NCBI GenBank assembly: GCA_049512055.1
Contig: JBEKXK010000006.1
Coordinates: forward strand, 1-63,878
Reading direction: 5' to 3'
From: Syntrophales bacterium
Lineage (GTDB): Bacteria; Desulfobacterota; Syntrophia; Syntrophales; UBA2185
Length of the DNA: 63,878 nt
The position numbers and the translations under genes are program-made. Within the stretch, counting starts at the first letter, position 1, and the number at the start of each line of letters is the position of its first letter. Of this stretch, positions 6,485-30,730 are shown piece after piece. The notes beneath the pieces were generated by a model that was not told where the DNA came from, searched no databases, and saw only the letters and a list, made by a program, of their open reading frames with translations.

Positions 6485-6500
6485 CGACGGGGCAGGCATC

Positions 6501-7205
6501 ATGACAACTTCTGATTCTTCTCTAAAACATAACCCTTTCGGAGAACTGAAGAAATGCGTCGGACGCAAGACGCAGCCCAAGCCATCGTCCGCTCGCGTAT
6601 CCAAATCTGAGCTGGAGCCTGCCCGCGATCCGGAAATTGAAGAACAGGTTTTTCTCGAAGCCGTTCAGGATGTGAAACCGATGCAGCAGGACAAACGCGC
6701 GGCGAATAATATCAGGAGCAGGCCGCCGGAGACCGTCAAGGAGTCCCCGGAAACGGCAATCGTCGGTCAGCTTACGAATCTCGTAAAATATGGGGAGGGC
6801 TTCGTCATTTCGGATACGCCGGAGTACATCGAGGGCACAGGCTATGACGTGCATCCAGAGTTTGCGGGGAGACTCCATCGCGGTGATTTTTCCATACAGG
6901 CCCACGTTGATTTTCACGGGCAGAGCGTAGCAGAGGCAAAGAAGACATTCGAAGAGTTCCTAAATGGGGCTGTCAAATTGGGCAAGAGGGCGGTCCTGAT
7001 CATTCACGGACGCGGCCTCTCTTCGCCGGGCGAACCACTGTTGAAAAATAACGTCCATGAGTGGCTAACCCGCGGACACTGGCGCAAGTGGGTGATCGCC
7101 TTTTCAAGCGCGCAATCTTATGACGGCGGCGCAGGCGCAACATACGTTCTCCTCCGCCAACGGCCTGTTTCAAAGCATGCGCGAAAGGGACGACGAGAGG
7201 AATAA
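6501..7205 (+). CDS. Smr-domain protein (SmrA/SmrB-like)
   Basis: LHRGDF..VDFHG, IIHGRG, DGGAGATYVLL are Smr domain motifs. Confidence 0.88.
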   Translation: MTTSDSSLKHNPFGELKKCVGRKTQPKPSSARVSKSELEPARDPEIEEQVFLEAVQDVKPMQQDKRAANNIRSRPPETVKESPETAIVGQLTNLVKYGEGFVISDTPEYIEGTGYDVHPEFAGRLHRGDFSIQAHVDFHGQSVAEAKKTFEEFLNGAVKLGKRAVLIIHGRGLSSPGEPLLKNNVHEWLTRGHWRKWVIAFSSAQSYDGGAGATYVLLRQRPVSKHARKGRREE

Positions 7206-7210
7206 TTCAT

Positions 7211-7333
7211 TGTCACTCCCGCCCTCGAATGTCCTTATCGGGGGTGTGGACGACGGAATGTAGTGCAGACCTTTAGGCCTGCTTTCTTCAACAGGACGTT
7301 CCCCCTTTCTTGAAGGGGGATTCAGGGGGATTT
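7211..7333. repeat. Composite REP-like repeats
   Basis: CCTCGAATGTCCTTATCGGGGG (7223-7244) is identical to 16853-16874. CCCCCTTTCTTGAAGGGGGATTCAGGGGGATTT (about 7301-7333) matches the right arm of the 2557-2635 element. Confidence 0.7.
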
Positions 7334-7359
7334 TAAATGCCCATACACGAGGTGATTCC

Positions 7360-7809
7360 ATGACGCATACTTTCTTGTTACAGGAGGGAGTCTGGATCGC
7401 CCGCGGCCATTACTTTGATGACAGGGAGCGAATGTTGCCGCTCGAGGGAATGGTCAGAATCACGCACCTGGAAGGTTTGTGGCTAAATGAAGGGCAAGCG
7501 GAAATCAAGATGGGAGAGAATCCTGTCAAGATCCACAGTCGCTATGAAATTATTCCTTTCGAAGAAGGCAAGAATCAGACGACCTGGGAATCCGTGAACC
7601 CCGACCTGGGTATCCTACAGGGCCGGTCCATCATTGTTGCCGATACGATCATCTCGACCTGCCGCTCAGAAAAAGGTGAATACACCGGGGCCGAATTCCA
7701 TATAAAAGCAAGTGACGTCTATTATAAGAATCGGGGCATTCTTTTTAAAGGAAATGACAAATTATCATCCTGGAGCGTAGATCTGAAAAAATCATCGCAA
7801 GATTTATGA
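7360..7809 (+). CDS. Hypothetical protein, probably an all-beta barrel
   Basis: 149-aa ORF with GAGGTG RBS and alternating strand-like pattern. No recognised catalytic motif. Confidence 0.65.
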   Translation: MTHTFLLQEGVWIARGHYFDDRERMLPLEGMVRITHLEGLWLNEGQAEIKMGENPVKIHSRYEIIPFEEGKNQTTWESVNPDLGILQGRSIIVADTIISTCRSEKGEYTGAEFHIKASDVYYKNRGILFKGNDKLSSWSVDLKKSSQDL

Positions 7810-7937
7810 AACCAATCTTTCCCGGCGTGATGATACGTCTCAGAAAACGGCTTGATTAAGTGGGGCGTTTCCTGTAAATATCCTGAACATCACGCCCGTA
7901 AAAACTTCGCCGAAGCCTGGTCAATGGAGAAGGGACA

Positions 7938-8927
7938 ATGCTGAAGGTCCTTGACGACGAATCCGCAATCAAAAGATACAGGCGACAATTCATAAAGAGC
8001 TTCAAACCTTTCATCGATGAAAAAATCCCTGTAAGTCTGGGCCATCCCGGCGCAACGGTCAAGGCTAAGGCCTTGTGGTCGCAGCGCCTCGGCATCTGGA
8101 TGGTGAACGAGAAGACGTCGGGAAGCAGGTACGGGCATGCATTCGGGGCGGAAAAACCGACGGGCACATCTCATATCCCGATTACATGCGAAATCAATTT
8201 CCCCGTAAAAGGGGTTGACAGGCGCATGGGCGGGGCGCTGGCGATAGACCGCAAGGGCCGAATATTCGTGGCGCACCGGGGCAGAATCGGCGGCGGCAAG
8301 AAAGGCGTCGGCAAGGCTCTGTTCGATGACCACTACAGGGGCGTTTGGGCAATCATGGAAGACGGTTCCGCGGAAACCACTGTGGCTTTAATAGGCGTCC
8401 TGAATTCGCCGCGGTTCGTCAGGCAGGTCAGTCAATTTATCCGCAAGGTTGACAGGATGAAAAATATTTTTTCATCCCGCACTTCTCAAGTGGAAATGTC
8501 TTTTGACGAGCTTCATTTCCGGGAAGAGCTTATCGGTGCGCGCTATGCGGACCCGCTGACCGATCCTGCATCGATGTGCGACCACGGTTTAATTGTAAAG
8601 GATTTATACGACGTACTTTCCCGCCTCGGTTTTAAAGCAGGGAATGACCCGGAAGGGGACATCCTTATTGTGAATGCCAGAAAAGAGATAACAGCCGTCT
8701 TTGAAGTAATCACAGATGCATCAATACACAGTATACAGTCTGCTGCCGCCCGGCTGCTCCTCGCCAACACCGAACTTCCGAAGCAACCCCGTCTGATTCT
8801 CGCTATCCCCGAGGCTGTCGATGAAACGCTCAATAGAAAACTGAAGAAGCTGGGCGTCGATATGCTGCCATACAATTGGAAGCATGATCAGGCTGTCTTC
8901 CCGGGACTCAACGAGCTGATCACATAA
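7938..8927 (+). CDS. Two-domain protein with a degenerate PD-(D/E)XK-like C-terminal domain
   Basis: N-domain motifs CEINFP, HRGRIGGGKKGVGK. C-domain HGLIV...GDILI...FEVITD...LLL fits a restriction-nuclease fold pattern with the EXK lysine replaced. Lies 17 nt upstream of the RM gene. Confidence 0.6.
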   Translation: MLKVLDDESAIKRYRRQFIKSFKPFIDEKIPVSLGHPGATVKAKALWSQRLGIWMVNEKTSGSRYGHAFGAEKPTGTSHIPITCEINFPVKGVDRRMGGALAIDRKGRIFVAHRGRIGGGKKGVGKALFDDHYRGVWAIMEDGSAETTVALIGVLNSPRFVRQVSQFIRKVDRMKNIFSSRTSQVEMSFDELHFREELIGARYADPLTDPASMCDHGLIVKDLYDVLSRLGFKAGNDPEGDILIVNARKEITAVFEVITDASIHSIQSAAARLLLANTELPKQPRLILAIPEAVDETLNRKLKKLGVDMLPYNWKHDQAVFPGLNELIT

Positions 8928-8944
8928 GTGCTAAGGGGTGTAAC

Positions 8945-11831
8945 GTGGCAGCTCCCAAAGAAATCGTTGAATTAGTCGAGCGCTTTGAAAGCAACCGCAA
9001 GGATTATAAATCAGGCGGTTACAACGAGGCGCAATTGAGACAGGAGTTTATCGGCCCTTTTTTCAAGGCTCTCGGCTGGGACGTGGACAACACGGCCGGG
9101 CATGCTGAGGCATACAAGGACGTCATACATGAAGACGCAATCAAGATAGGCGGCGCTACCAAGGCCCCTGATTATGCCTTTCGCATCGGCGGCACACGAA
9201 AATTTTTTGTTGAAGCAAAAAAACCAGCGGTAAACATTTCCGAAGATGTAGCCTCCGCCTATCAACTGCGTCGCTACGCATGGTCTTCGAAACTTCCTCT
9301 TTCCATCCTCACTAATTTTGAAGAACTGTCCGTCTATGATTGTACCGTAAAGCCGAGCAACAAAGACAAGGCGTCCACCGGCCGCATACTGCATTTCGAT
9401 TACAGAACCTACTGCAAGAACTGGAGAGAGATCGTAGGAATATTCTCCAAGGATGCAGTTCTCAGAGGTTCGTTCGACCGGTACGCACAGTCTGCTGCCG
9501 GCCGCAAGAAAGGGACTGCCGGCGTTGATGATGCCTTCCTTGCCGACATTGATGAGTGGCGGCAGTCTCTGGCACAGAATATCGCCCTCCGCAATCCGAA
9601 GCTGACCCAACGGGATCTCAATTTTGCCGTAGGGAAAACAATCGACCGGATTATCTTCCTGCGCATCTGTGAAGACCGCGGTATCGAGCCATACGGCCAG
9701 CTCATGGCCCTTCAGAATGGTACGGGCATCTATAAGCGTTTGATCCAAATCTACTACAGCGCTGACGATAAATATAATTCCGGCCTCTTTCATTTCCGGC
9801 ATGAAAGAGATCGTTCCGAGCAGCCCGATGACCTGACGCTTAATCTCACCATAGACGATAAACCGTTGAAAGAAATTTTCAGCAGGCCTCTATTATCCCG
9901 ATAGTCCCTATGAGTTTTCTGTTCTTCCTGCCGATATCCTGGGTCATGTCTATGAGCAGTTTCTGGGGAAGGTCATCTACCTCACGGCGGGACACCGGGC
10001 CAAAGTCGAGGACAAACCGGAAGTCAAAAAGGCAGGCGGCGTCTATTATACGCCGACTTACATCGTCGACTATATTGTGAAGAATACGGTGGGCAAACTC
10101 GTTGAAGGGAAGAAGCCGAAGGGGGTTCAGAAGCTGAAGATACTTGATCCCGCCTGCGGCTCCGGCTCCTTCCTGATCGGCGCATATCAGTATCTTTTGG
10201 ACTGGCATCGTGACCGGTACATCGAAGATGGGCCTGAGAAATGGGTGAAGGGTCGAAATGCAGCGCTATGCCAGGTCATGCGCGGCGAATGGCGGTTAAC
10301 GACGGCTGAGCGGAAGCGTATCCTCCTAACTAACATCTACGGCGTGGATATTGACCCACAGGCCGTGGAGGTCACAAAGCTCTCACTCCTTCTCAAAGTT
10401 CTCGAAGGCGAAAACGAAGAGACCCTTGCCAATCAGATCAGGCTCTTCCACGAGCGCGCCCTTCCGGATCTGGGAAACAATGTCAAGTGCGGCAACTCAC
10501 TCATCGGCCCCGATTTTTACGACAACCAACAGTTAGGCTTCTTTGATGACGAAGAACGCTACCGCGTAAATGTCTTCGATTGGAAGAAAGAGTTCCTCGA
10601 AGTCTTCAACAATGGCGGCTTCGATGCTGTCATTGGAAATCCACCGTATGGATATATGATATCACGCGAACAACAACAATACCTTGCGAAGCATTACGAA
10701 CATCAAGATTATCAAAAGGATTTCTACCTTCTGTTCTTAGAGCGCTACAAGTTCTTCATAAAATATAACGGCCTTCTTGGTGTCATTGTATCTAACACTT
10801 GGCTTCAATCGGTGACGTTAAGGAAAATTAGACAGTATTTAACGAGCCGGTACCTTTGGCTAAGAATTCTATGCCTACAAGAAAAGGTGTTTCGGGCCAT
10901 TGTTGACACTCATGTTCTGATCTTTCAGAGAGTGGATCGCCTAGGTAAGGAGACGGGGTTCTTAAGCGTTGACTTTCGGTTAAATGGAACTATCTCAGAA
11001 AGCCATACGTTATCGTGGCAGGAAATACCCAACACTGGTGATCCAATAAATATAATCGCGAAGAGTGAAGCTCACGATTTATATGACAAGGTTCAACAGA
11101 TGTCTTTGTCCTTGTCAAGGATTTGCAGGGTATTCAATGGCGTCAAACCCTTTGAAAAAGGCAAAGGAAGCCCTCCCCAGACCGATCAGGTGCTGAAAGA
11201 GAAACCTTACGTGCGAGAAGGGGCAGCTCCCAATAAAAAATGGTCTCCGCTGTTGCGAGGGAGTCTAATTCATCGCTATACAAATCTGTGGAATCGAGAT
11301 TACTGGATTCAATATGGCCCTTGGCTTGCGGCCCCACGTGATCCCTCGATATTTGAAGCACCTTTGAAGATTGTTGTTCGCCAAACGGGTGATTCAATTA
11401 TTGGAACCTTGGTTGAACAAGGCTTCATAGCGCGCAACAACTTGCATGTATTGTTGCCAGAACATAATCCGTACAACCTTCGTTATGTCTTAGGAATAAT
11501 GAACTCCAAGTTAATGGATTTTATTTATACGATCATGAATCCCGAGAAAGGAGAAGCTCTAGCAGAAGTTAAAAAGAAACATGTCGAGCAACTGCCCATC
11601 CATGGCATTAATTTCTCCGACCACGCCGACAAAACGCACCACGACAAGATGGTAACATTAGTCGAACAGATGCTTTCGCTCAATAAGAAGCTGGCAGACG
11701 CAAAAACCGAACATGATAGAACCAACCTCCAGCGTCAGATCGACGCCACTGATCGCCAGATCGACCAGCTCGTTTATGAGTTGTATGGATTGACAGACGA
11801 AGAGATCAGTATTGTGGAGGGGAATGCATAG
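8945..11831 (+). pseudogene. Type IIG (Eco57I-like) restriction-modification fusion enzyme with a 1-nt frameshift
   Basis: NEAQLRQEFI and PDY..VEAKK nuclease motifs; GGVYYTP, ILDPACGSGSFL and IGNPPY N6-MTase motifs; TRD; C-terminal IDQLVYELYGLT. Removing one C at 9887-9888 joins KEIFSR to LYYPDSPYEFSVLPADILG and gives one continuous ORF. Confidence 0.85.
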
Positions 11832-17972: not shown

Positions 17973-18009
17973 CGCAATTCCTCCTGATCTGATTTTCGAA
18001 GTTTTATAA

Positions 18010-18026
18010 CTCAAGATATATGCCAG
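18010..18026 (-). promoter_or_regulatory. Candidate sigma-54 promoter for the porin gene
   Basis: Minus strand CTGGCATATATCTTGAG: correct -24/-12 spacing, but GA instead of GC at -12. Confidence 0.4.
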
Positions 18027-18309
18027 ATGTGAAAAGGTGCGTTAGCATCCATAATCGGTTGAATATGGAGACTATTTATCTTCTCTCTCTGTTGACTGAA
18101 AGTGCAACAAAGAAACAAAAATGTGATTTCTCTTTGGAGTGATAACAAAATTGTATGCCAATAAAAGTGATATGGCTTGCAGGATACAGAAGCCTTATGG
18201 ATTACTGGAAGTCAGGCGACTCACTTTTTTCCTTGAAAAAACGAAAGCGAATCCTTTATGGTAGCTTTGCTTTCTTGCCATGGGAAGTAATCCGATTTGA
18301 GGGAAATAA

Positions 18310-19653
18310 ATGAACCTTCTAACCAGTCCGCTTCTTACCGATCTTTACCAGTTGACCATGATGCAGGGTTATGTGGATGAAGGTATGCACGAAGAGGCAG
18401 TCTTCGAGTTTTATGTACGGAGCCTGCCCCCGAGCCGCGGTTTCCTGGTCGCGGCCGGCCTCGATACGTTGCTTGCTTTTCTCGAAGGGATGCGATTCAC
18501 GGAAGAGGAACTAAAATACATAGCAGGTATGGGCAGGTTTTCTCCAGCCCTGTTAGATTATCTCACTGAAATCCGCTTCCGCGGCGATGTATATGCCATG
18601 GCGGAGGGAACGGTCTTTTTCGAAAACGAGCCCGTTGTGCGCGTCGTCGCCCCCATGCCGGAGGCGCAACTGATTGAGACGCGCCTGATTAATATCCTGC
18701 ATTTCGAGACACTAATTGCCAGCAAGGCGGCCCGTTGCATGCTGGCAGCAGATGACAGGGCCGTCCTGATTGATTTCGGAGTCCGGCGATCTCACGGAGC
18801 TGAGGCGGGGCTGCTGGCGGCCCGGGACTCATATATAGCCGGCTTTGCGGGTACATCTACCGTGCTGGCGGAGGCCATCTACGGGATACCTATTTTCGGA
18901 ACGATGGCGCATTCCTATGTTGAGGCCCATGGGGACGAGTTGGAGGCGTTTCTCAGTTTTGCCCGTGCGAATCCGAATAATACGACCCTTCTTATCGATA
19001 CGTATGACGTCCATAAAGGGGCAAAAAAGGCAGTGGAAGCGGCGAAGATATTAAAGGAGGCAGGAATAATTGTTCGCGCCGTACGCCTTGATAGCGGCGA
19101 TCTTTTGGCTCTCTCGAAAGATGTCCGCGAGATCCTCGATCAGGCAGGTCTGACAGATGTCCGAATCTTCGCAAGCGGCAATCTTGACGAGTACGCGATC
19201 CGTGCTCTATTGTCTCGAGGGGCGCCCATAAACGGTTTTGGCGTGGGCACGAAATTAGATACCTCGGAAGACGCGCCATATATGGAATGCGCTTACAAGC
19301 TGATGGAGTATGCCGGCACGCCGCGCTTCAAGAAGTCAGAGGGGAAAGCCACCATTCCCGGACGCAAACAGGTCTTTCGCCAGTTTGATAACCGGACGAT
19401 GGTTCGGGATATTCTGACCATTGAAGGGGATGAGATAGAGGGGACGGCGCTTCTTGCCAAGGTGATGAGCGGCGGTAAAAGAAGGGTTTCGGAGCGCCGG
19501 GAATTGAAAGAGATTGCAGCGTATACGCGGTCGCAGTTGAATGCACTTCCGGCTCATTTCCGGAGGCTGGAGACGACACCGCCATATTCCGTCAAAATCT
19601 CTCCCGCATTATCAAGGATTGAACACGAAAGCGAGCGGCGGCTGGGTTTGTAA
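18310..19653 (+). CDS. pncB: Nicotinate phosphoribosyltransferase
   Basis: LLTDLYQLTM, DFGVRRSHG, GTMAHS, LIDTYD, VRLDSGD, FGVGT. Confidence 0.95.
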   Translation: MNLLTSPLLTDLYQLTMMQGYVDEGMHEEAVFEFYVRSLPPSRGFLVAAGLDTLLAFLEGMRFTEEELKYIAGMGRFSPALLDYLTEIRFRGDVYAMAEGTVFFENEPVVRVVAPMPEAQLIETRLINILHFETLIASKAARCMLAADDRAVLIDFGVRRSHGAEAGLLAARDSYIAGFAGTSTVLAEAIYGIPIFGTMAHSYVEAHGDELEAFLSFARANPNNTTLLIDTYDVHKGAKKAVEAAKILKEAGIIVRAVRLDSGDLLALSKDVREILDQAGLTDVRIFASGNLDEYAIRALLSRGAPINGFGVGTKLDTSEDAPYMECAYKLMEYAGTPRFKKSEGKATIPGRKQVFRQFDNRTMVRDILTIEGDEIEGTALLAKVMSGGKRRVSERRELKEIAAYTRSQLNALPAHFRRLETTPPYSVKISPALSRIEHESERRLGL

Positions 19654-19758
19654 ACTGTTCGTGATACGTTATGCGTGACTCCGGGGCACTTCGCGACGAA
19701 GGATCTTGAGATATATCCTCAGTTGAGATCACGAAAAGAGAAAGTTGCCAAAAATTCT

Positions 19759-21366
19759 CTATTTCTTCAAATTACGATTTAGAGCTGCCCCGATAAATTT
19801 GCCGAAGAGTGGATGGGGACTCGTCGGCCGCGATTTAAATTCGGGGTGAAACTGGCACCCCAAAAACCACGGGTTGTCTTTGATCTCGACAATCTCGACA
19901 AGACGGCGATCAGGCGACGTCCCTGTAATATGCAGACCCTTCTCCACAAGGATATCTCGGAAACTGTTGTTCACTTCATAACGGTGCCTGTGTCTTTCAC
20001 TGATTTCACTGACACCGTAAGCATCAAATGCAAAAGAGCCGGCCTCTAAAAGGCAGGCGTAAGCGCCCAGCCTCATCGTTGCGCCCATCTCCGTGATACT
20101 TCTCTGCTCGGGTAGATAATCGATCACCGGATACGGGGTTTCCTTGTCAAATTCGGAGCTGTTCGCCCTTTCGAGTTTGCATACGTGCCGGGCGAATTCC
20201 ACAACGGCGAGCTGCATGCCCAGGCAGATGCCGAAATACGGAACCTTCTTCTCACGGGCAAATTGAATGGCGGTGATCATCCCCTCAATGCCGCGCTCTC
20301 CGAAGCCTCCAGGCACGAGGATACCGTCAGCGCCTTCCAGAAGGTCGCCTAACCCTTCTTTCTCGATCTTTTCCGAATCGACAAAACGCAGGTTTACCCG
20401 GCAGTTGTTTGCAATGCCCCCATGCACTAATGCTTCATTGAGGCTCTTGTAAGAATCCGTCAAATTCACGTATTTGCCCACTATGGCGATACACACTTCG
20501 TGGGGAGGATTTTTGATCTTGTCTGCCACGTCCTCCCATGCCTCCAGATGCGGCCTGCCCGTCCAGATGTTTAAGAGGTCGACAATTTTATTATCCACCC
20601 CTTCCTTGTGAAAAACTATTGGCACTTCATAGATGCACTGCACATCCTTTGCCGTAAATACGGATGAAACTTCCACATTACAGAAAAGAGCTATCTTGGC
20701 CTTGATTTCTTCGGGGAGAAAATCTTCCGTGCGGCACAAGAGAATGTCAGGTTGAATACCGATTTCACGGAGGGCCTTCACGCTGTGCTGCGTTGGTTTT
20801 GTCTTAACCTCCCCGGCGGTCTTCATGAAGGGGACCCATGTCAGATGTATAAATATGGCGTTTTGTTTTCCCACTTCGTTGCGGAATTGCCTGATTGCTT
20901 CCAGAAAGGGCTGGCTCTCAATGTCTCCGACGGTTCCGCCGACTTCAATGATCGCGACATCGAACCCGGCCGCGCAGCTCTTGATGTAATCTTTTATTTC
21001 ATCCGTAACATGGGGAATCACCTGCACCGTCTTGCCTAGATATTCCCCCTTCCTTTCCTTGGAAATTACCGAAAAATATACCTGACCAGACGTGAGATTA
21101 TTGCACTTCGCCATGCGGGTCGAGGTAAATCGCTCATAGTGCCCCAAGTCAAGGTCTGTTTCCGCGCCGTCGTCCGTCACAAAAACCTCGCCGTGCTGGA
21201 ATGGACTGAGGGTGCCGGGATCGACATTGATATACGGATCAAGCTTTTGATTGGTCACCCTGAGCCCCCGGCTTTCGAGAAGGGCTGCAATAGAAGCAGC
21301 CGCCAAGCCTTTGCCAAGGGAAGAGAGAACGCCGCCCGTCACAAAAATAAATTTTGTCTTCTTCAT
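19759..21366 (-). CDS. pyrG: CTP synthase
   Basis: [50 protein letters not shown]. Confidence 0.98.
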
Positions 21367-21381
21367 GATTGCTCCTGAAAT

Positions 21382-24300
21382 TTACTTGGCCTGAGAATTG
21401 CTGCTGTTCCCTCCCAGAGATTTTCTTATCTGACCCGCAATAACCTCCACCGTCTCGCCCAAGAGAATTCCTGTGGAAATATTTTCCAGATAGCCGTCAT
21501 CCCACTGCAGATTATATTCGTTAACGAGATTGCGGATGTCGTTGAATTTGTAGCCCAAGACTTCTTTCTTTCCTTTCACGGAAAGTAACTCGTTAAATTC
21601 CACGTGGATCAGGAGCAGGCTCCCTATGCCTCCTTTGTCTCCGAAAAGGGGAATAACGACGATGGAAGCGCAGTCGGCTTTTCCCCGCCCAATATATACA
21701 TGGCCGGTACTCACTATCGTCCTCTTGGTCCCCATGAGATTACTTGAACCTTCGGTCCTCGACTTCATCGTGAGTGAGATGCCCCCTCTGTCTTTAACAG
21801 TTATCGTCGAAGTATCCACGGGATTTCCTTCAGCGTCCAGATTATTAATGACATAGAGGGTATAACCGTTCAACGCGGCAATGGCCGGCTGAATCCTTGC
21901 GATGCTCAATACATTCTTGGTGACGATGGATTTGGTCGAGAATTCAAGTTGTCTTAATATGTCAAAGATAATACCCCTGAGAGGCTGCTCTTTCCTGCTT
22001 GTTCCGACTGTCACTGTTTTCGCCTGATGTCTGATGGCGTCTATCGGCCTGGAGAGCTCATCTACCGAGTGGCCGAGAGAGATGTCAAGCATCTCGACCG
22101 GGGATGATAGCCCCTCCTCACTCTTGAAATCGCTCCAGTAGTCTTCAAGAGGCAGTTTTCCGGCTGCATATTTGAGAAGAAGAACTATATCGGATATGGT
22201 ATTCACATTGGTGAATGAAAAGGCGCCGTCCGTTCTTCTTTGATTGAATTCAATCGAGAAATCCCTGACGAGCTTCCGGTAGTTTCTGTCGGCAAGCCTC
22301 TCGTAAATGGAATAATTTTTCTTCTCATGTTCCGCCATTATAAGATCGAGGTGGCTCCTGAATTCCCGCAAGAAGATGGCGTCTTCGTTAATGCTGCAAG
22401 CGGCATAGTAACCCCATAGATGTCCTGCCAGGGTATTTAAGATTACAGGCAGGGGCATCGCCGCCCTCGGCACCTCAACGACCGCATCGGCAACGCCGTC
22501 GAACCTCGCTTCACCTTCATCCGCAAAAACGACAACACCCGCCCTGTGCGCCTTGAAGATGGCCACATCTTTGATGATGTCTCCTGTCACAGTTTCCGGG
22601 CTGCCCGCTGCACAGACTATGATCAAAGGTTCGGCAGACAGGTCAATATGCTTCTTGTTTTCTATAAAATCTGACGATATCGTTTTGTAACAGAGCTCGC
22701 TCAGCTTTATCCTGATCTCATCTGCTGCCGCCTTGTTAGGCCCGTCTCCCACGATGGCCCAGTACCTTCTCTTTTTTGCCAGCAGTTCGACAGATTGCTT
22801 GATTTGCCCTTTCTTCTCTATCACCCTGTTCATCATGCTGGGCGCATGTTCGAGGTTGTGAAGCTCCTCGGCAATAAAGTCGTCGGAGACATTCGTAAGA
22901 AGCTGGGCAAGACAGAGCGCCAAGACATGCCCCGCCACAACCTGGGAGTAAAATGCCTTGGTTGAAGCCACGGACATCTCTATATCCCTGCCGTCGCTCG
23001 TATAAAAAACTCCGTTTGCCTTCCCTGTTATGTCGGATTGCCTTCTGTTGACGATGGCGATTACCGTCGCCCCCCGTTCCACAGCCATAGCTACGGCACG
23101 GTTGGTGTCTGTCGTCGTGCCCGACTGGGTGATGGGGATGACCAGCGTATCTTTCAGGTCATCCTCTAAAAAGAAGCCGCTCAATTCCGATGCGACCTTC
23201 GCGTCGATTTTGATATGAGTGCCTTTCAGATATCGTTGCAGTCCGTCGGCAACGGCCTCTCCGGCAACGGCGGCTGTACCGTGACCGATGACGATAATTC
23301 TCTTTGTCTCGCCGCGGGTGAAGGCCTGTCTCCATCCCTCCGGTATGATGTCCCGGCCAAGATTGAAGGTAACTTCATATCTTCCATTTTCTCTTTTTGA
23401 GATTCTATATTTGCCGCGCAGCGTTTTTCTTACGGAGAGAGTTGCTTCAGATATTTCTTTCAGGAAATAATGCGGATAATTACCCCGATCTATATCACGG
23501 GTGGTGATTTCTGCCTTCTGCACGGAGTCGCTTCCCATGGAGAGAGAAGTCCCGTCGTAAAAAAGCGCGCTGATCCCCGCAAGTCCCCCTTGAGAGTTCT
23601 GTTCAAGGATGAATATCTGTCCTGATGCTTCAGGTGCATCGTCTGAGGAAGGCCTTTCGCCGTCCATCTTCAGGAAAAACGGAGTGCCCTCCACGAGGCC
23701 ATAAAGTTCCGATGAAAATATATAATCCTCAGGGGCAAGGCCTACATAAATGGATTGCCCGCTGCCCTTCAAGGCAAGAAACACCTTCCCCGGCTCCGTA
23801 TTGCTGGTCATGCCGATGGCATGGGAGCCTTCAAATGCGTTTACGGCCAATCTGAACGCCTCGGTCAGATCATGCCCGGCAAGCAGATGCTTTTCAATTT
23901 GCAGGGGTATGATCTTCGTGTCAGTCGTAATATGAGGAGCAATGAGGTCTTCTCCCTCTTCAATCGCATTTCGCAGCGATTGATAATTGTCTATGTCTCC
24001 ATTGAGGATAACGTTAATGAACCAGCTTCCCTCGCCATAGAAAGGGTATTTTTTTATGATCTCCGGCCATGGAGCATCTTCACGGCCGCTGTTTCCGTTC
24101 ATGGTAAAGTTATTAATCGGATGGCAGTTTTCTTCCGTAATGGAACCCACTGATGCCCACCTTGTGTGGGATATGGAAGTCTCAAATTCCGTCTCCTCCT
24201 TGGATAATTCATAGAAAATCTTATCGTGGGAGATGAATCTTCTCAGATCCCTGACATTTTGACCGAGCTCGCCGATAATGGATGATGTCTTGTATACGAA

Positions 24301-25179
24301 CGCGATATCAATCCCTTTGCCCCGCGGACTACTCACGGATGGGATTGCATGAGAGACACAAATTGAACCGTTGATAAGGTCGCCTGCGCGGATCCTCGCG
24401 GAATAATCATCATACAGGCCTTTCTCTTTGAGCACGCTTAAGATATTCTCAAGCGATGCCGTATCGGAGAGCCTGAAGGATATCTGCATTCCCGCCGAGT
24501 CCCTTCCTCTTACCTCCAGCCTGTCGAGGCAATTCAGAAGAAAATTTATTTTCTTATATTTTGTAAAGGATACGGGAGAAATTTCTTTGACGCCGCCCGC
24601 TTCCGAGAGCCCCCTGATTTTTTCTATATTCTCGATTACGTCTTTCTCGAGACCCCAGATAATATCCTTCATCAGGATATGTCTGCTGTTTATCGTTTCC
24701 GTCTCCTCCGTCGGGAAGTTACCGGCGTTTTCTTCGAGGCCTTTTTCTTCGTCCAGGAAGAACAGCTTCATCTCGTTGGTGAGGTCCGACAGTTGAGAGG
24801 CGATGAGGGGTTTGAAATAGATTTCCTGAAATGCGGCGTCTGTCTTTAACTGGAAGAGCCTTTCTTCCATTTCCTGAAGCTTTCGGCCGCCCCCCAGATA
24901 TTGGCCGGGTGTTATAGAGCCGGCAGAGAGCGCCTTCATGTTATTCTTCTTGATGTCTCGGAAAAGCTTGGCAAGCTTCTTTATAAGGTCGCCTTCTTCA
25001 CGTTTGCCGACCCCTTTTATCGCCAGGATTCCGGCGAAGCCGCAGCAGACGATATCAGGAATTATCGGGAAGAAGACTATCGAGTATTCAGGAACCGTGT
25101 GTACATTAACGCCGACGTAGATCTTCCATTTCATGAGATAGTTGATTATTTCAGCGTACCATTGTCTTAATATCTGCAT
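21382..25179 (-). CDS. Very large GlmS-like glutamine amidotransferase/SIS isomerase (about 1265 aa)
   Basis: CGFAGI, LEVRGRDSAG, HTRWAS, NGDIDNY, QSGTTTDT, SVASTKAF, IKLSELCY, KKH and AKTVTVG map in order onto GlmS motifs, with large insertions. Start uncertain (ATG 25179 chosen). Confidence 0.8.
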   Translation of the reverse strand: MQILRQWYAEIINYLMKWKIYVGVNVHTVPEYSIVFFPIIPDIVCCGFAGILAIKGVGKREEGDLIKKLAKLFRDIKKNNMKALSAGSITPGQYLGGGRKLQEMEERLFQLKTDAAFQEIYFKPLIASQLSDLTNEMKLFFLDEEKGLEENAGNFPTEETETINSRHILMKDIIWGLEKDVIENIEKIRGLSEAGGVKEISPVSFTKYKKINFLLNCLDRLEVRGRDSAGMQISFRLSDTASLENILSVLKEKGLYDDYSARIRAGDLINGSICVSHAIPSVSSPRGKGIDIAFVYKTSSIIGELGQNVRDLRRFISHDKIFYELSKEETEFETSISHTRWASVGSITEENCHPINNFTMNGNSGREDAPWPEIIKKYPFYGEGSWFINVILNGDIDNYQSLRNAIEEGEDLIAPHITTDTKIIPLQIEKHLLAGHDLTEAFRLAVNAFEGSHAIGMTSNTEPGKVFLALKGSGQSIYVGLAPEDYIFSSELYGLVEGTPFFLKMDGERPSSDDAPEASGQIFILEQNSQGGLAGISALFYDGTSLSMGSDSVQKAEITTRDIDRGNYPHYFLKEISEATLSVRKTLRGKYRISKRENGRYEVTFNLGRDIIPEGWRQAFTRGETKRIIVIGHGTAAVAGEAVADGLQRYLKGTHIKIDAKVASELSGFFLEDDLKDTLVIPITQSGTTTDTNRAVAMAVERGATVIAIVNRRQSDITGKANGVFYTSDGRDIEMSVASTKAFYSQVVAGHVLALCLAQLLTNVSDDFIAEELHNLEHAPSMMNRVIEKKGQIKQSVELLAKKRRYWAIVGDGPNKAAADEIRIKLSELCYKTISSDFIENKKHIDLSAEPLIIVCAAGSPETVTGDIIKDVAIFKAHRAGVVVFADEGEARFDGVADAVVEVPRAAMPLPVILNTLAGHLWGYYAACSINEDAIFLREFRSHLDLIMAEHEKKNYSIYERLADRNYRKLVRDFSIEFNQRRTDGAFSFTNVNTISDIVLLLKYAAGKLPLEDYWSDFKSEEGLSSPVEMLDISLGHSVDELSRPIDAIRHQAKTVTVGTSRKEQPLRGIIFDILRQLEFSTKSIVTKNVLSIARIQPAIAALNGYTLYVINNLDAEGNPVDTSTITVKDRGGISLTMKSRTEGSSNLMGTKRTIVSTGHVYIGRGKADCASIVVIPLFGDKGGIGSLLLIHVEFNELLSVKGKKEVLGYKFNDIRNLVNEYNLQWDDGYLENISTGILLGETVEVIAGQIRKSLGGNSSNSQAK

Positions 25180-25220
25180 ATGAAAATCCTCAAAGTCCCG
25201 ATTTCGTCTAATTGATGGCG

Positions 25221-26480
25221 TCAGGAGTTGCAGGACGGCAAATGCATTAATGCCGCATGGATGACATGATCTACAAGGTTTTGCAGCCATGCCGTTCCCT
25301 TGATTGATGCATCTCTATTTAGGCTCTGAATGACCGTTATATAATCACCTTCATCTTTCATTCTGTTACGAATGAGTTTAATGAATGAGTCCCTATTCTT
25401 GAGATCAACAGATACTTCTTTCCCGGTGGTGAAAGTCTCCTCAAGCCTCGGCCAATTTTCGCTCAATTCATTTTTCTGTTTGAGAAGCTCTTCCTGCGTG
25501 CCTTTTTTCATGGCATCTCTGCCCAGCTCTATTGATGTTTCCATTTTGAGAGACAGGTCTTTGAAGCGCTTCAATCTTTCATCAATGGCAATTTCAAGCT
25601 TGTCCATGGCCCCGGCATACAGCTCCGCGCCCATATGCTCCTGTTGAAAAAAGGGTTGCCGGACGTGGGCATACCACTGTCTTAAGGCCAAGAGGTTGGC
25701 GATGTAGCAGATGTTATTATAGACGCGATGCTTGATACTTCTGTAAAAACCTGCACGAAAGGATTTGTCGTGGGTGGGGATGTCTCTTTCCGTTATTAAT
25801 CTGTTTCCTTTAGGATAATCCCTCCTGCAAACCACTCCCGCCGCGGTCACGCTGCCGTAACCGATTCTGACAGGGCCGACCAGGCCTCCCTGACCCCCCA
25901 AGAAAATGGGCGGTTGGTTTAACATTACGCCTCTGGGTACGTCGCCGATGAGTGAAGGTGTGGCTTTATCCTGGTTGGGTGTGTAATTGAAATGTATATA
26001 GGAGCTTCCAACTTCGCTGTGATTTTTCCGGCTCGTTCCGCCTGCCATGAAACAGTCACAAAAGTTGATGAGGCTGCCCAAGGTTACAAATGGGAAGAGT
26101 ATGGTCTGCTTTAATCCGACTGTATGATTCGCATTGGCCTCTTCTTCGAGGATACATCCTTCACGGACCTGCGCGCCGCATGCCACGGTCGCCTTGCGCA
26201 GAAAGACGGATGATTTAAAAAATCCCCCTCTCAGCTCGACATCCGGTCCGGTTTGACAATCGACGACGGTTGCCGGCGCCTCATATCCCAGCTTGGTTCC
26301 CGGAGAGATCAGGGTTTTTAACCCATAGATCCTGGTTCCGGGATAAATGGATACGCCGTCGCCGGAAATCCTCTCCGGAACTATTTCTTCCCCGATATCT
26401 ACAGAAAAGGGGCTCGGTATATTGACCCCCTTTTCCATCAATTTAACTATGTTATGTGACAGGCTAACGTTTAGTTTCAC
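25221..26480 (-). CDS. GlmU-acetyltransferase-like left-handed beta-helix protein with no uridylyltransferase domain
   Basis: LMEKGVNI start, hexapeptide repeats, GAQVREG, VGLKQT, EVGSSYIHFNY, GPVRIG..SVTAAG resemble the GlmU C-domain. Start is GTG 26480 or ATG 26438. Confidence 0.7.
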   Translation of the reverse strand: MKLNVSLSHNIVKLMEKGVNIPSPFSVDIGEEIVPERISGDGVSIYPGTRIYGLKTLISPGTKLGYEAPATVVDCQTGPDVELRGGFFKSSVFLRKATVACGAQVREGCILEEEANANHTVGLKQTILFPFVTLGSLINFCDCFMAGGTSRKNHSEVGSSYIHFNYTPNQDKATPSLIGDVPRGVMLNQPPIFLGGQGGLVGPVRIGYGSVTAAGVVCRRDYPKGNRLITERDIPTHDKSFRAGFYRSIKHRVYNNICYIANLLALRQWYAHVRQPFFQQEHMGAELYAGAMDKLEIAIDERLKRFKDLSLKMETSIELGRDAMKKGTQEELLKQKNELSENWPRLEETFTTGKEVSVDLKNRDSFIKLIRNRMKDEGDYITVIQSLNRDASIKGTAWLQNLVDHVIHAALMHLPSCNS

Positions 26481-26778
26481 GACTGATGCCCAGCTTGGCC
26501 ATTTTTTTCTGGAATGTGTTTCTGTTGATTCCAAGGTAATTGGCTGCAGCACTCTTGACATTACCATTCCGCTTAAGGGCAATCTTGAAAAGACATCTTT
26601 CCACCATGATCAAAACTTCTTCATGCAATCTGCTTTTCCTTTTTTTCCCATCACCGACTTGACAGAGGACTGTAGAAATGTCTTCAAGCTTTTTTTCCAT
26701 AGCCTCCTCAATAAGCGCATATGGCTTTGCCTGAACATTTTGATCCACAGCTACAGATTTTGTTTTCTTGCGTTTCAT
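26464..26778 (-). CDS. Stand-alone Fis-like HTH protein
   Basis: VERCLFKIALKRNGNVKSAAANYLGINRNTFQKKM is a Fis/HTH_8 pattern. Confidence 0.85.
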   Translation of the reverse strand: MKRKKTKSVAVDQNVQAKPYALIEEAMEKKLEDISTVLCQVGDGKKRKSRLHEEVLIMVERCLFKIALKRNGNVKSAAANYLGINRNTFQKKMAKLGISRETKR

Positions 26779-26870
26779 AATAACGACGCGCCCTTTCTCC
26801 CATGCTTTTGTCGCGAAGAAGGTCTGATGATTCTTAACTTAGCTTGTGACTTTTTACAAGATCAGAAAAT

Positions 26871-27389
26871 TTATGAGGTAAACAGTTTTGTGATTATGAT
26901 CCCTGCAAGTACCACAGCCGTAAACCAGGTCATAACGATATCCGACATATTATTTGCAGGATGTTCAATCTGTCTCCTGACTTCTTCTTCCACCTTTTCA
27001 TTGTCCATATGACCGACAAGTTCACTGACGAGAGTGGAAAACTTTTCATACGCGTTAGATAGAATATAAAATCCCTTCACTGTAGTCAACAGGATATATA
27101 CCCTTTTTCTCAGTATAAGAGCGCCAATATGAGTTATATCCTCCCAGCGGAGTTCTTTTTTCCGCATGAATTTCCTGATCATGATGCCATGGTCTCCCGT
27201 TTGGACCATGCGGAATGAAGATTCGAAAAGAACATAAAGAACGGGCATGAAGATAGCAGTAAGCAATATTCTTTCTAATCTCGACCCACTCAGGAAATAC
27301 GACAGCAGGACAAGGAGGAAGAGGAGAATAAAATCAACGAAAAAGGGAAATAAAAACGACCTTCTTATTCTATAGACGTTTTGATACAT
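26871..27389 (-). CDS. Membrane protein with a probable bacterial PH-like domain
   Basis: Two N-terminal TMs, GIMIRKFMRKKELRWEDI motif, C-terminal TM. Confidence 0.65.
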   Translation of the reverse strand: MYQNVYRIRRSFLFPFFVDFILLFLLVLLSYFLSGSRLERILLTAIFMPVLYVLFESSFRMVQTGDHGIMIRKFMRKKELRWEDITHIGALILRKRVYILLTTVKGFYILSNAYEKFSTLVSELVGHMDNEKVEEEVRRQIEHPANNMSDIVMTWFTAVVLAGIIITKLFTS

Positions 27390-27423
27390 AGCTTCTATGG
27401 GTAAATGAATGCGGACCTCTCAT

Positions 27424-27903
27424 TTAGTTATCTCTAATAAAGAGGCCGCTCTTGCCGCCATGTTTTGTGATTAATTTGATGTCCGAAAGAACTATGTTTT
27501 TATCGGCGGATTTGCACATATCGTAAATTGTGAGAGCCGCAACGCTGACGGCGGTCATGGCCTCCATCTCCACCCCTGTTCTACCTACAGTCTTCACAGT
27601 CGCTTCAATGGTTATTTCGCCGGAATCCGCATCTTTCGTAAACCTTATGTCAATACCTGTCAATTCCAAAGGGTGGCACATAGGGATCATTTCGCTTGTC
27701 TTTTTGGCTGCCATGATCCCCGCAATCTTGGCTACAACGAAGACATCTCCCTTAGGTATCTCTCCCTTTTCGATGAGGCTCAACGTCTTTTTTTTCATCA
27801 GGACCTTCCCTCGGGCAACGGCCTTTCGTACGGATCGTTCCTTTTCCGTTACATCAACCATCTTGGCCTTGCCTTTATCATCGAGGTGGGAGAACTTAGT
27901 CAT
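27424..27903 (-). CDS. moaC: Cyclic pyranopterin monophosphate synthase
   Basis: FSHLD..MVDV, KGDV, IPMCHP, TGVEMEA, IYDMCK, KHGGKSG. Confidence 0.97.
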   Translation of the reverse strand: MTKFSHLDDKGKAKMVDVTEKERSVRKAVARGKVLMKKKTLSLIEKGEIPKGDVFVVAKIAGIMAAKKTSEMIPMCHPLELTGIDIRFTKDADSGEITIEATVKTVGRTGVEMEAMTAVSVAALTIYDMCKSADKNIVLSDIKLITKHGGKSGLFIRDN

Positions 27904-27940
27904 TATGTTTTTCTGAACCTCTTAGCAGGAAGTTGCGCCG

Positions 27941-28033
27941 AAATTAGCATAGCGCCTTTCCCCAGTCAAGAGGGTTAAAAAAATACTTTTCCCAAAGAAA
28001 TATCTTGCCATGGAAAAAGTTATTCTGTAATAT
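27941..28033. promoter_or_regulatory. Divergent sigma-70 promoters for moaC and comM
   Basis: Minus strand TTGACT-17-TAATTT with TGn extension (27969-27941). Plus strand TTGCCA-17-TAATAT (28005-28033). Confidence 0.6.
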
Positions 28034-28070
28034 TTTCGCCCACTCTTGAGAAAGTCTCGGGGAGCACGAA

Positions 28071-29600
28071 TTGATTGTAAAGGTCATCAGCAGCACCGTT
28101 GTCGGTGTAGATTCGTATCCAGTCGACGTGGAAGTAGATATATCACCGGGACTTCCTCAATTTTTGACGGTAGGGCTTCCCGATGTTGCAGTCAAGGAAA
28201 GCAAAGACAGAATCAAGGCGGCCATCAAAAATTCCGGCTACAAATTCCCCAAGAACCACGTTACCGTAAATCTTGCACCCGCAGACATTAAGAAAGAAGG
28301 AACCGGTTTCGACCTTCCCATTGCAGTAGGCATCTTGACAGGCGAAGGATGCATTGAGCTTACGGACGCTCTCGATTACATCCTCGTCGGAGAATTGTCC
28401 TTGGACGGAAGCATCAAGTGCGTTGATGGAGTCCTTCCCGCGGCCCTCCTGGCAAAGGAAATGGGGAAGAGGGGTATCATCGTGGCGAGGGAAAACGCCA
28501 ACGAAGCCGCCATGGTGGAAGCTGTCGAAGTGATTCCTGTTGATGTCCTTTCCGACGTTGTTGAATTTCTTAACGGCAGGAAGAAAATAATACCATTGAC
28601 GCTTGACGTAGCCGATTTATTCAATAAGAGTTGTAATTATCCTTTCGATTTCAGCGAGATCCGCGGTCAGGAGCACGCAAAAAGGGCATTGGAAGTTGCC
28701 GCAGCCGGAGGTCATAATATAATAATGATAGGTCCGCCGGGCTCAGGAAAGACGATGCTGGCACAGAGGCTCCCGACCATACTTCCCGGCCTGACTTTTA
28801 CTGAAGCAATTGATATTACGAAGATATTTTCTGTAACAGGACTGCTCAACAAGAGAGAGACCATTTTAGGGACGAGACCGTTTCGAGCGCCCCATCACAC
28901 AATTTCAGATGCCGGACTCGTGGGGGGAGGACACACTCCCAGACCGGGAGAGATCAGCCTTGCCCACCACGGCGTCTTGTTTCTCGACGAGCTGCCGGAA
29001 TTCAAGAGAAATGTCCTTGAGGCATTGAGACAACCTTTGGAGGATGGACATGTCACGATCACGAGGTCTTCCATTACTGCCACATATCCGGCAAGATTTA
29101 TGCTTGTGGCGGCTATGAACCCCTGCCCCTGCGGTTATTATACCGATCAGACGCGGGCTTGCAGATGCACAACACAGCAGATCCGCCAGTATCAGGCGAG
29201 GATATCGGGACCCCTCTTGGATAGAATAGATATTCATATCGAGGTCCCGTCGGTAAGATATAAGGACCTTACGGGAAGGTCTGCCGGTGAATCGTCCGGC
29301 GCCATTAAGGAAAGAATAGAGCGGGCGAGGTCCATGCAGAAGCGAAGATTTGCCGGCCGGAGTCTGCAATTCAATGCGAGGATGTCAGACAAAGAGATAA
29401 AACTATATTGCACTGTTGATGAGGAATCCCAGAAACTAATTGAAATGGCCATTGAGAAACTCTGGCTCTCAGCACGGGCCTATACCAAGGTGCTGAAGAT
29501 TGCCAGAACTATTGCGGATATTGAAGTAGATGAGAATATCCGGTCCCGCCATGTCGCCGAGGCCATCCAATATAGAAGCCTTGATAGAAAAATGATTTAG
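28071..29600 (+). CDS. comM: YifB/ComM Mg-chelatase-like AAA+ ATPase
   Basis: VGLPD..KESKDR, VNLAPAD, FDLPIA, GPPGSGKT, FRAPHH, LFLDELPEF, NPCPCGY, SGPLLDRID. Confidence 0.95.
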   Translation: MIVKVISSTVVGVDSYPVDVEVDISPGLPQFLTVGLPDVAVKESKDRIKAAIKNSGYKFPKNHVTVNLAPADIKKEGTGFDLPIAVGILTGEGCIELTDALDYILVGELSLDGSIKCVDGVLPAALLAKEMGKRGIIVARENANEAAMVEAVEVIPVDVLSDVVEFLNGRKKIIPLTLDVADLFNKSCNYPFDFSEIRGQEHAKRALEVAAAGGHNIIMIGPPGSGKTMLAQRLPTILPGLTFTEAIDITKIFSVTGLLNKRETILGTRPFRAPHHTISDAGLVGGGHTPRPGEISLAHHGVLFLDELPEFKRNVLEALRQPLEDGHVTITRSSITATYPARFMLVAAMNPCPCGYYTDQTRACRCTTQQIRQYQARISGPLLDRIDIHIEVPSVRYKDLTGRSAGESSGAIKERIERARSMQKRRFAGRSLQFNARMSDKEIKLYCTVDEESQKLIEMAIEKLWLSARAYTKVLKIARTIADIEVDENIRSRHVAEAIQYRSLDRKMI

Positions 29601-29644
29601 TGATAAGGGACTCTACCTACGCCGATGGTAGAGCAAAGGGGGGG

Positions 29645-30730
29645 ATGAAACGTATGGAGATTAAGATTGTTCGCGCCAAACCTAAGCAGATGAAGGCGAA
29701 GCCCGAGGACGAATCAAAGCTGGGGTTCGGTAAAATATTCACGGATCACATCTTTACGATGAAATATCATGCGGATCGTGGCTGGTATGACGCAATGATA
29801 GAACCCTATCGGCCCTTGTCCCTTGACCCTACAGCCATGTGCCTTCACTACGGACAGGAAATATTTGAAGGATTGAAGGCATACCGGGGAAAGAACAAAG
29901 CGCTCTTCCTCTTCAGACCGGACCGGAATATAAATCGGATGAACAACTCCGCAGATAGACTCTGTATGCCGCGGGTCGATCCCGATCTATTCATGGAGGC
30001 CCTGAAAAAACTTGTTCTCATCGACAAGGACTGGGTGCCTCGATCCCATGGGGCGTCCCTATATATCAGACCGACGATGATTGCCACGGAAGCGGCCCTG
30101 GGCGTGCACAGCGCCAATGCATACCTGTTTTTCATTGTCGTTGGTCCCGTCGGTCCATACTATCTCCAGGGATTCAGCCCGACGAGCCTCTACGTGGATG
30201 AAGAGTTTGTCCGGGCCGTGCGGGGAGGAATAGGGTTCATTAAGGCTGCGGGTAATTATGCCGCAAGTCTCCTGGCAAGCAAATTAGCCGCTGAAAAAGG
30301 TTTTACGCAGGTGCTTTGGTTAGATGCCATCGAGAGAAGGTATATTGAAGAGGTGGGGACGAGCAACATCTTTTTCCTTATCGGGGATGAATTGATTACA
30401 CCTCCCCTCGCGGGAAGCATCCTGCCTGGCGTCACCCGTGATTCAGTAATACAGATGGCCAGGAGGTGGAATATCGCCGTTTCCGAAAGGCCCATTTCGA
30501 TCGATGAGCTTATGGATGCATCCGCCCAAGGCACGCTGAAGGAGGCCTTTGCCTCCGGGACGGCCGCTATAGTTTCGCCCATTGGAGAGATCTTTTACAA
30601 GGGGAGGCCGACGGCCATAAGTGGAGGGAAAATAGGGGCCCTAACCGAAAAATTATACAATGAAATCCTTCAGATACAATACGGCGAAAAAGATGATCCT
30701 TTTGGCTGGAGGGTGCCCATATCGGACTGA
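29645..30730 (+). CDS. ilvE: Branched-chain amino acid aminotransferase
   Basis: FTDH, LHYGQEIFEGLKAY, LYIRP, KAAGNYA, EEVGTSN, ILPGVTR, GTAA. Confidence 0.95.
   Translation: MKRMEIKIVRAKPKQMKAKPEDESKLGFGKIFTDHIFTMKYHADRGWYDAMIEPYRPLSLDPTAMCLHYGQEIFEGLKAYRGKNKALFLFRPDRNINRMNNSADRLCMPRVDPDLFMEALKKLVLIDKDWVPRSHGASLYIRPTMIATEAALGVHSANAYLFFIVVGPVGPYYLQGFSPTSLYVDEEFVRAVRGGIGFIKAAGNYAASLLASKLAAEKGFTQVLWLDAIERRYIEEVGTSNIFFLIGDELITPPLAGSILPGVTRDSVIQMARRWNIAVSERPISIDELMDASAQGTLKEAFASGTAAIVSPIGEIFYKGRPTAISGGKIGALTEKLYNEILQIQYGEKDDPFGWRVPISD

Follow-up and report, generated by a model that had tools for sequence, protein, structure and literature searches.

The minus strand of contig JBEKXK010000006.1 from a Syntrophales bacterium (the window, 63,878 nucleotides) carries six open reading frames in a row without long gaps. 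They encode MoaC, a membrane protein, a Fis-type helix-turn-helix protein, a left-handed beta-helix (LbH) protein, a very large GlmS-like protein (the giant GlmS) and the CTP synthase PyrG. This cluster probably represents the lineage's housekeeping synthesis of UDP-N-acetylglucosamine (UDP-GlcNAc), remodelled and split, rather than a separate amino-sugar route. The data presented are homology, conserved residues, distribution, synteny and gene fusions; the enzyme activities, leader cleavage, any sensing and co-transcription discussed below are inferred. GlmS and GlmU are generally taken to be essential in almost all bacteria and are viewed as antibiotic targets, and here a whole order is without the canonical form of either.

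Profile searches of the whole genome found nothing over the curated cut-offs for canonical GlmS or full-length GlmU. The best GlmS match in these searches was the giant itself, at 188.5 bits. An earlier reading of this DNA, made from the sequence alone (the sequence-only reading), had remarked that the uridylyltransferase is missing; it is indeed absent from the LbH gene and is encoded separately on contig C10, as a stand-alone GlmU N-half of 256 residues (268 bits, model positions 2–237) that ends right after the nucleotidyltransferase domain. A canonical GlmM is encoded on contig C76 (594 bits), and NagB was not found in the genome by profile search. The genome contains both murA and lpxA, whose products use UDP-GlcNAc, and UDP-GlcNAc is therefore needed; no second, ordinary pathway to it was found in the genome or in the order sample described below. 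A 242-residue LbH protein on contig C39, which scores 60 bits against the GlmU C-half, was weighed as a possible housekeeping acetyltransferase and rejected. Its gene (locus L009, 1021–3599) adjoins reading frames that were read by eye as an FdtA-like cupin and a flippase, and the surroundings look like an O-antigen-type, or surface-sugar, cluster.

The distribution of these genes was determined in 121 genomes of the same order. Canonical GlmS over the cut-off was found in none of them, and full-length GlmU was likewise found in none. A giant GlmS of about 1250 residues occurs in 106 (the best match spans the isomerase domain, and the frames are mostly of 1200–1400 codons), and the N-half of GlmU only in 115, in frames of about 250–320 codons. 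The LbH protein is present in 113 genomes, including 98 of the 99 of high quality, and is full-length with 47–89% identity; G064 and G112 each have a second, partial match, and the other 111 have one match only. The sample includes single-contig genomes (G007, G041, G059, G070 and G074) and, because these match the pattern, incompleteness does not explain it. In the order, a canonical C-half of GlmU that stands alone (272 bits) occurs only in G070, so that the GlmU N-half, this C-half, the LbH protein and the giant GlmS stand together on its single contig (positions noted, C1:4244065–4244727 and C1:935941–937158).

Both the LbH protein and the giant GlmS are encoded in 100 of the order genomes. 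Neighbourhoods were counted by hand from the match coordinates. The LbH gene lies directly upstream of glmS on the same strand in 53 of the 100 and directly downstream in eight, which gives 61 immediate same-strand neighbours. It is found about 2.7 kb downstream on the same strand in two, within about 6 kb on the other strand in six, far away on the same contig in four and on a different contig in 27. The co-occurrence that the sequence-only reading expected of the two genes is thus borne out. In two genomes the surrounding open frame is long: an LbH homologue (G017:C5:124527–125678) lies within 2248 codons and a giant GlmS (G117:C106:38939–40567) within 1586 codons, and either may be a further fusion or extension.

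The sequence-only reading had proposed an alternative route to an N-acyl-hexosamine phosphate. With neither canonical glmS nor glmU in the genome or the order, and with the split GlmU N-half and glmM present, this proposal is not supported. Ordinary N-acetylglucosamine-1-phosphate made alongside a split uridylyltransferase of known type, which that reading itself had set against its proposal, is most likely what these genes specify.

The giant GlmS resembles bacterial GlmS (E. coli; PDB 4amv, 2j6h and 1jxa) in having an N-terminal nucleophile (Ntn) glutaminase and two SIS subdomains, with aligned catalytic residues and an AK(S/T)VTV tail lysine. Pfam detects SIS plus weak GATase domains. Glutaminase residues kept in the alignment to the E. 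coli enzyme comprise RGRDSAG (R26), HTRWAS (the W74 loop), NGDIDN (N98-G99) and TTDT (D123), and those kept in the isomerase part comprise TQSGTTTDT (the S347-Q-S-x-x-T352 loop), VASTKAF, KLSE (K485 and E488) and KH (H504). The catalytic C-tail is internal rather than terminal. Its motif, RPIDAIRHQAKTVTVGTSR, does not vary among the 21 giants aligned, and the lysine of HQAKTVTV, Lys1054 (codon 22018–22020), would on motif likeness be the equivalent of GlmS Lys603.

The giant is twice as long as the E. coli enzyme, with 1265 residues against about 608. About 45 residues are added as a leader, the glutaminase contains three insertions, further helices are inserted ahead of the C-tail, and the C-tail is followed by a domain of about 190 residues. 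Eukaryotic GFAT1 (PDB 6r4e) is likewise a longer GlmS relative, but its additions lie elsewhere and are unrelated in sequence to those of the giant, and GFAT has neither a leader nor a domain after the C-tail. Feedback control of GFAT1 by UDP-GlcNAc is exerted at the protein level.

The giant GlmS is probably made as a pro-enzyme whose leader is cut off to free Cys46, since Ntn amidotransferases need a free N-terminal cysteine. A precedent is PurF of Bacillus subtilis, from which a short N-terminal propeptide is removed to expose the catalytic cysteine; the leader of the giant is about four times longer than the propeptide of PurF-type Ntn amidotransferases. Codon differences in the leader relative to a same-genus genome comprise 12 synonymous and 13 non-synonymous ones, without insertions or deletions, and in a comparison with two close relatives about half of the codon differences are synonymous, again with no insertions or deletions. 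Literature searches found no description of a leader of this kind on GlmS.

The C-terminal domain was examined in a model of residues 930–1265, which has a predicted local distance difference test (pLDDT) score of 86. The best structural match is 7jsr_A (VIA Z 9.9; root mean square deviation 4.4 over 159 residues; 11% identity), in which it covers residues 174–361 of the large glutamate dehydrogenase of M. smegmatis. That protein is a different enzyme, and its published description assigns ACT-like and PAS-type sensor domains to the N-terminal segment (PMC8175468). GAF, PAS and Cache domains come next, with Z of 5.4–6.5. A Foldseek search of the PDB with the model gave no match at E≤0.001, Pfam gave none for residues 1069–1256, and generic helical bundles, aligned to model residues 1–129, filled the results of a wide VIA search. 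Atlas look-ups for the C-terminus returned only unannotated clusters with scores below 0.9, which serve as leads only. The PAS/GAF likeness of residues 1069–1256 is treated as a lead from the model and not as family membership.

In E. coli GlmS, the C-tail acts as a mobile lid. In the giant it is tethered on both sides, and the PAS/GAF-like domain tied to it could gate the C-tail in response to a metabolite. An alternative, which we consider rather unlikely, is that these additions have no regulatory role. In this view, either the annotated start would be wrong or the leader would stay attached as a structural strand, and the C-terminal domain would serve oligomerisation or stability only. Conservation is lower in the extra regions than in the cores (overall identity of 0.28–0.54 against 0.63–0.93; for the glutaminase insertions, 0.30–0.40 against 0.63–0.76), the fold matches of the C-terminal domain are middling and include no known ligand site, and some lineages have no leader. 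Thus, 4 of 120 close homologues have a leaderless M-C-G-F start, and two lineages (G011 and G358) start directly with M-C-G, with a stop codon and a Shine-Dalgarno sequence just before. However, inspection of the sequence revealed no alternative start codon next to Cys46, and a leader of at least 25 residues is called in 113 of the 120 close homologues, with shared W-K-I-x-V-G and F-F-P motifs. The requirement for a free cysteine and the tethering of the C-tail also argue against this alternative.

The LbH protein gave no Pfam match at E≤0.01 and has no uridylyltransferase domain. A profile built from 42 members of its family retrieved 18 sequences from the PDB, all of them GlmU acetyltransferase domains (E 1e-11 to 4e-6), and the next family followed at E 0.059. 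The AlphaFold model of the 405-residue form (pLDDT 94.8; predicted template modelling score 0.94) consists of a beta-helix (residues 1–225) and a helical bundle (residues 236–397), and all Foldseek matches listed to rank 35 are GlmU. Invariant residues R92, K110, N151 and K158 align to R333, K351, N386 and K392 of GlmU, which we take to be the sugar-phosphate-binding residues of the E. coli enzyme. The likeness to the GlmU acetyltransferase domain (PDB 2oi6, 3twd and 5vmk) thus comprises the left-handed beta-helix and these four equivalents. Unlike that domain, the LbH protein stands alone, has six extra residues between the K351 and N386 equivalents, and carries a C-terminal helical bundle of about 160 residues, for which no match was found. 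An Atlas score of 0.88 to DUF4954/DUF6819 proteins served as a lead only, and a Pfam scan of the 42 members gave no DUF4954 match. Both families currently carry names given by similarity alone, 'SIS domain-containing protein' for the giant GlmS and 'UDP-N-acetylglucosamine pyrophosphorylase' for the LbH protein; the latter name is wrong, because the protein has no nucleotidyltransferase domain.

Both proteins extend well beyond the order. A scan with the C-terminal region of the giant found this form of GlmS in at least 594 species-level genomes, with labels that include Syntrophus aciditrophicus, Smithella, Desulfomonilia and several Desulfobacterales. The LbH family comprises 734 representatives at E≤0.001 (50% clustering), one cluster having a member labelled Planctomycetota. 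By sequence comparison, the unusual features of both proteins are real and widespread. In a sample of 301 genomes of the phylum, the LbH protein was found in 52, canonical GlmS in 259 and GlmU over the cut-off in 171. The 41 LbH-bearing genomes outside the order divide into 24 with canonical GlmS, 16 with giant-type scores and one without GlmS; six of the 16 were verified as giants (1175–1269 residues, 42–45% identity). Conversely, family f76 has a more distant giant (37–41% identity) together with full-length GlmU and no LbH protein. The giant GlmS and the LbH protein are therefore linked but not inseparable, since the phylum sample shows each without the other.

GlmU was also assessed in the same 41 genomes: a full-length form is clear in six and missing from the other 35, of which 25 hold an N-part or truncated version only and ten gave no match at E≤1e-40. 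In four genomes checked in detail, GlmU is cut at model position 328–357. Five of the ten genomes without a match were searched further: the LbH protein is the best match to the GlmU C-half in four of them, and four of the five encode a weak N-type transferase (about 100 bits) that stands alone.

The sequence-only reading had also suggested that the two enzymes form a complex through their extra helical domains. No support for this was obtained. A profile comparison of the LbH family with the GlmS C-terminal region by hhalign detected no homology (probability 0.1), and the LbH helical domain is kept in the 24 genomes outside the order that have canonical GlmS, as well as in G095, an order genome without any GlmS.

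The LbH module also occurs fused to other enzymes. The fusion survey covered 41 LbH relatives of at least 710 residues. In 39 of these, of 740–760 residues, GlmU positions 2–340 are followed by the whole LbH module. In another, the LbH module is followed by GlmM (565 bits, over the cut-off); this 914-residue form has three cluster members, one of them with three accessions, and those with names carry the label Desulfococcaceae. In the remaining one, a galactokinase-like kinase precedes the LbH module; 12 of the 14 proteins in its cluster have this form, of 838–840 residues. In a quick tree, the GlmU-fused forms of the LbH family group in one clade, and the other two fusions fall elsewhere among the stand-alone forms. 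In G409, the LbH gene adjoins a truncated glmU and a canonical glmS. In G095 (locus L131, G095:C38:9000-26000, about 3824–10431), the gene order is moaC, membrane protein, fis, LbH, GlmM, NagB-like and PfkB kinase, with GlmM at 614 bits and the NagB-like protein at 141 bits, under its cut-off, which suggests that GlmS has been replaced there by an ammonia-using deaminase route. Every fusion or neighbour partner of the LbH protein described here is an enzyme of hexosamine-phosphate metabolism.

Several observations weigh against the assignment of the cluster to housekeeping UDP-GlcNAc synthesis. The sequence-only reading was right that both enzymes are remodelled: the giant GlmS scores 223–243 bits, below the cut-offs of 418 (TIGR01135) and 381 (NF001484), and the LbH protein scores only 18–45 bits, far below the cut-offs of the GlmU models, over positions of about 232–447 (for bifunctional GlmU, TIGR01173, 37 bits over positions 240–436 only, with a cut-off of 367). 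In the HMMER profile alignment, the catalytic residues His363, Glu349 and Ser405 of GlmU align to F126, G108 and G182 and are not kept. Seven genomes (G070 in the order; G247, G277, G284, G305, G384 and G400 in the phylum) hold a canonical acetyltransferase domain alongside the LbH protein, which is therefore not always the sole acetyltransferase candidate. About one-third of the phylum genomes without the LbH protein are also without full-length GlmU (best E 1e-68 to 1e-108), so that other split or truncated GlmU solutions must exist in the phylum. Within the order, 15 of the 121 genomes are without GlmS of either type (nine with no match and six with PurF-like matches only), and a renewed search of five of these, which are 94–100% complete and include G095, with the giant GlmS protein found nothing. 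Finally, the source genome is 92% complete.

Some of these points bear on a rival explanation, which we judge improbable, in which a protein other than LbH is the acetyltransferase. The LbH protein would then bind sugar phosphates without catalysis, as a subunit or regulator, or it would act on a different hexosamine-1-phosphate or with a different acyl donor. Glucosamine phosphate would be acetylated by another enzyme, such as a GNAT protein acting on glucosamine-6-phosphate as in eukaryotes. The three unmatched catalytic residues and the seven genomes with a canonical domain fit this explanation, and the galactokinase-like fusion partner might indicate that a different sugar is involved. However, a different gap placement in the alignment might set the invariant D128 at the position of His363, and the invariant residues D128, H140, E142 and H149 are all no more than one coil away from the aligned active site, where they could take over catalysis. 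The fusions join the LbH module to the enzymes that act just before (GlmM) and just after (the GlmU N-part) the acetylation step. The order genomes offer little in its place, with no full-length GlmU and a single canonical C-half among the 121, and the only other notable GlmU-like LbH protein of the source genome is the one in the O-antigen-type cluster.

Under the favoured housekeeping assignment, the giant GlmS would convert fructose-6-phosphate and glutamine to glucosamine-6-phosphate, and GlmM from contig C76 would convert this to glucosamine-1-phosphate. The 419-residue LbH protein would then acetylate glucosamine-1-phosphate with acetyl-CoA, and the stand-alone GlmU N-half from contig C10 would add UMP. 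Bacteria with only the N-terminal domain of GlmU have been reported, and 'an unidentified acetyltransferase' has been inferred for them, in a preprint of June 2026 that deals with S. aureus NagU and with species that have NagU homologues and that names no acetyltransferase candidate (bioRxiv 10.64898/2026.06.23.733835). A transposon study of Planctopirus limnophila found only the N-domain of GlmU to be essential. The GlmU-N-only situation presented in the preprint is seen here across an order, and a specific family is proposed for the acetyltransferase; the LbH family is a concrete, testable candidate for this enzyme where GlmU is incomplete. Literature searches found no paper on the giant GlmS or on the stand-alone LbH form.

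A more far-reaching proposal, possible but distinctly tentative, is that the LbH protein is this acetyltransferase throughout the GlmU-N-only bacteria (Desulfobacterota, the Rokubacteria-type fused forms and perhaps Planctomycetota), with a catalytic set unlike the histidine of GlmU, and that the giant GlmS is a zymogen in which a PAS/GAF-like sensor gates the C-tail. If true, hexosamine synthesis would be controlled at the protein level in a way that has not been described in bacteria. Both pro-enzyme activation and control of the C-tail lid by a domain could be tested on the giant GlmS.

The cluster layout agrees exactly with the sequence-only reading, which had placed the genes on one strand, running on from moaC and the membrane protein, with a 17-nucleotide overlap and gaps of 41 and 15 nucleotides. 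The overlap is between fis and the LbH gene, and the two gaps lie between the LbH gene and glmS and between glmS and pyrG; moaC is separated from the membrane protein gene by 34 nucleotides, and the latter from fis by 92. The overlap depends on the GTG start of the LbH gene, which is backed by homologues with about 14 extra N-terminal residues and by the many family members of 419–420 residues. The ATG of the giant GlmS at 25179 has GAGGA 8 nucleotides upstream. The features are listed in Table 1.

Table 1. Positions of the cluster genes and of the parts of the giant GlmS in the window
Feature	Position	Strand	Remarks
moaC (cyclic pyranopterin monophosphate synthase)	27424..27903	-	Pfam MoaC 193 bits; NCBIfam 226 bits, over cut-off
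Predicted membrane protein, 172 residues	26871..27389	-	Weak DUF2232 match, 16 bits, under cut-off
Fis-type helix-turn-helix protein, 104 residues	26464..26778	-	Pfam HTH_8 46 bits, cut-off 22
LbH protein, 419 residues, GTG start	25221..26480	-	Predicted glucosamine-1-phosphate N-acetyltransferase; P0002 is the 405-residue ATG form
Giant GlmS (P0001), 1265 residues	21382..25179	-	Only GlmS-type gene found in the genome
Leader (putative prosegment), codons 1–45	25045..25179	-	Conserved; precedes the nucleophile cysteine
Cys46 codon, equivalent of GlmS Cys1	25042..25044	-	CGFAGI motif in 118 of 120 close homologues
Glutaminase domain, residues 47–560, with insertions at about 53–208, 234–329 and 355–386	23500..25041	-	Alignment to E. 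coli GlmS
Isomerase part, residues 600–930, two SIS subdomains	22390..23382	-	TQSGTTTDT, VASTKAF, KLSE and KH motifs
Helical insertion (931–1040) and internal catalytic C-tail RPIDAIRHQAKTVTVGTSR (1044–1062)	21976..22389	-	Alignment; model for the helices
Extra C-terminal alpha/beta domain, residues 1069–1256	21412..21975	-	PAS/GAF-like by fold (model)
pyrG, CTP synthase	19759..21366	-	NCBIfam TIGR00337 816–851 bits, over cut-off, both domains

The arrangement is conserved. The order moaC, membrane protein, fis, LbH, GlmS and pyrG, or fis, GlmS and LbH, recurs in nine of ten loci from different families of the order and is therefore not due to chance; moaC and a Fis-type gene are upstream in nine of the same ten. 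Locus L055 of Syntrophus aciditrophicus shares this gene order, and public relatives carry the labels Syntrophales, Syntrophus and Smithella. Among 63 related public loci, moaC, the first gene of the conserved cluster, is upstream in 31, the membrane protein keeps its position between moaC and fis in 36, fis is present in 36 and the LbH gene in 36, and pyrG, the last gene, lies at most 300 nucleotides downstream of glmS in 27; many of these loci end at contig edges. MoaC has no evident link to amino sugars. The membrane protein received no family assignment from the Pfam and NCBIfam scans. The Fis-type gene sits directly upstream of the first hexosamine gene and its product is a candidate regulator or nucleoid protein, although the Fis equivalog models score it at only 29–42 bits, under their cut-offs of 99–122. 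An Rfam search of positions 18000–30000 gave no match at E≤0.1, and a promoter and terminator scan of the cluster yielded no useful intergenic signal; the genes are presumed to be co-transcribed. PyrG, the Fis-type protein, the membrane protein and MoaC are conserved neighbours and not demonstrated members of the pathway.

The sequence-only reading was correct in that CTP synthase follows GlmS (851 bits, 15 nucleotides downstream), although the positions 21382–27903 that it covers do not include pyrG, which its title names. It had drawn from this neighbour a CTP-dependent activation step, which is not supported: pyrG is the only gene of the genome that matches CTP synthase. A module of its own for some other N-acyl-hexosamine phosphate, linked to pyrG through a CTP-dependent nucleotidyltransferase, is very improbable, as the conserved position of pyrG after glmS, its place directly before the LbH gene in one unrelated lineage (G309) and the distance of both enzymes from the canonical families are set against a genome and an order with no second canonical pathway to feed MurA and LpxA, a GlmU-type uridylyltransferase half kept in 115 of the 121 genomes, a cluster without a cytidylyltransferase gene and a giant that keeps the GlmS catalytic residues. 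In G309, which lies outside the order, pyrG is directly upstream of the LbH gene (locus L037, G309:C3:5655000-5669000, 2163–5200) and the giant GlmS is encoded elsewhere, on another contig. A further neighbour of the LbH gene, mnmG, was seen upstream of it in three of the five GlmS-less order genomes that were searched again (G028, G064 and G044).

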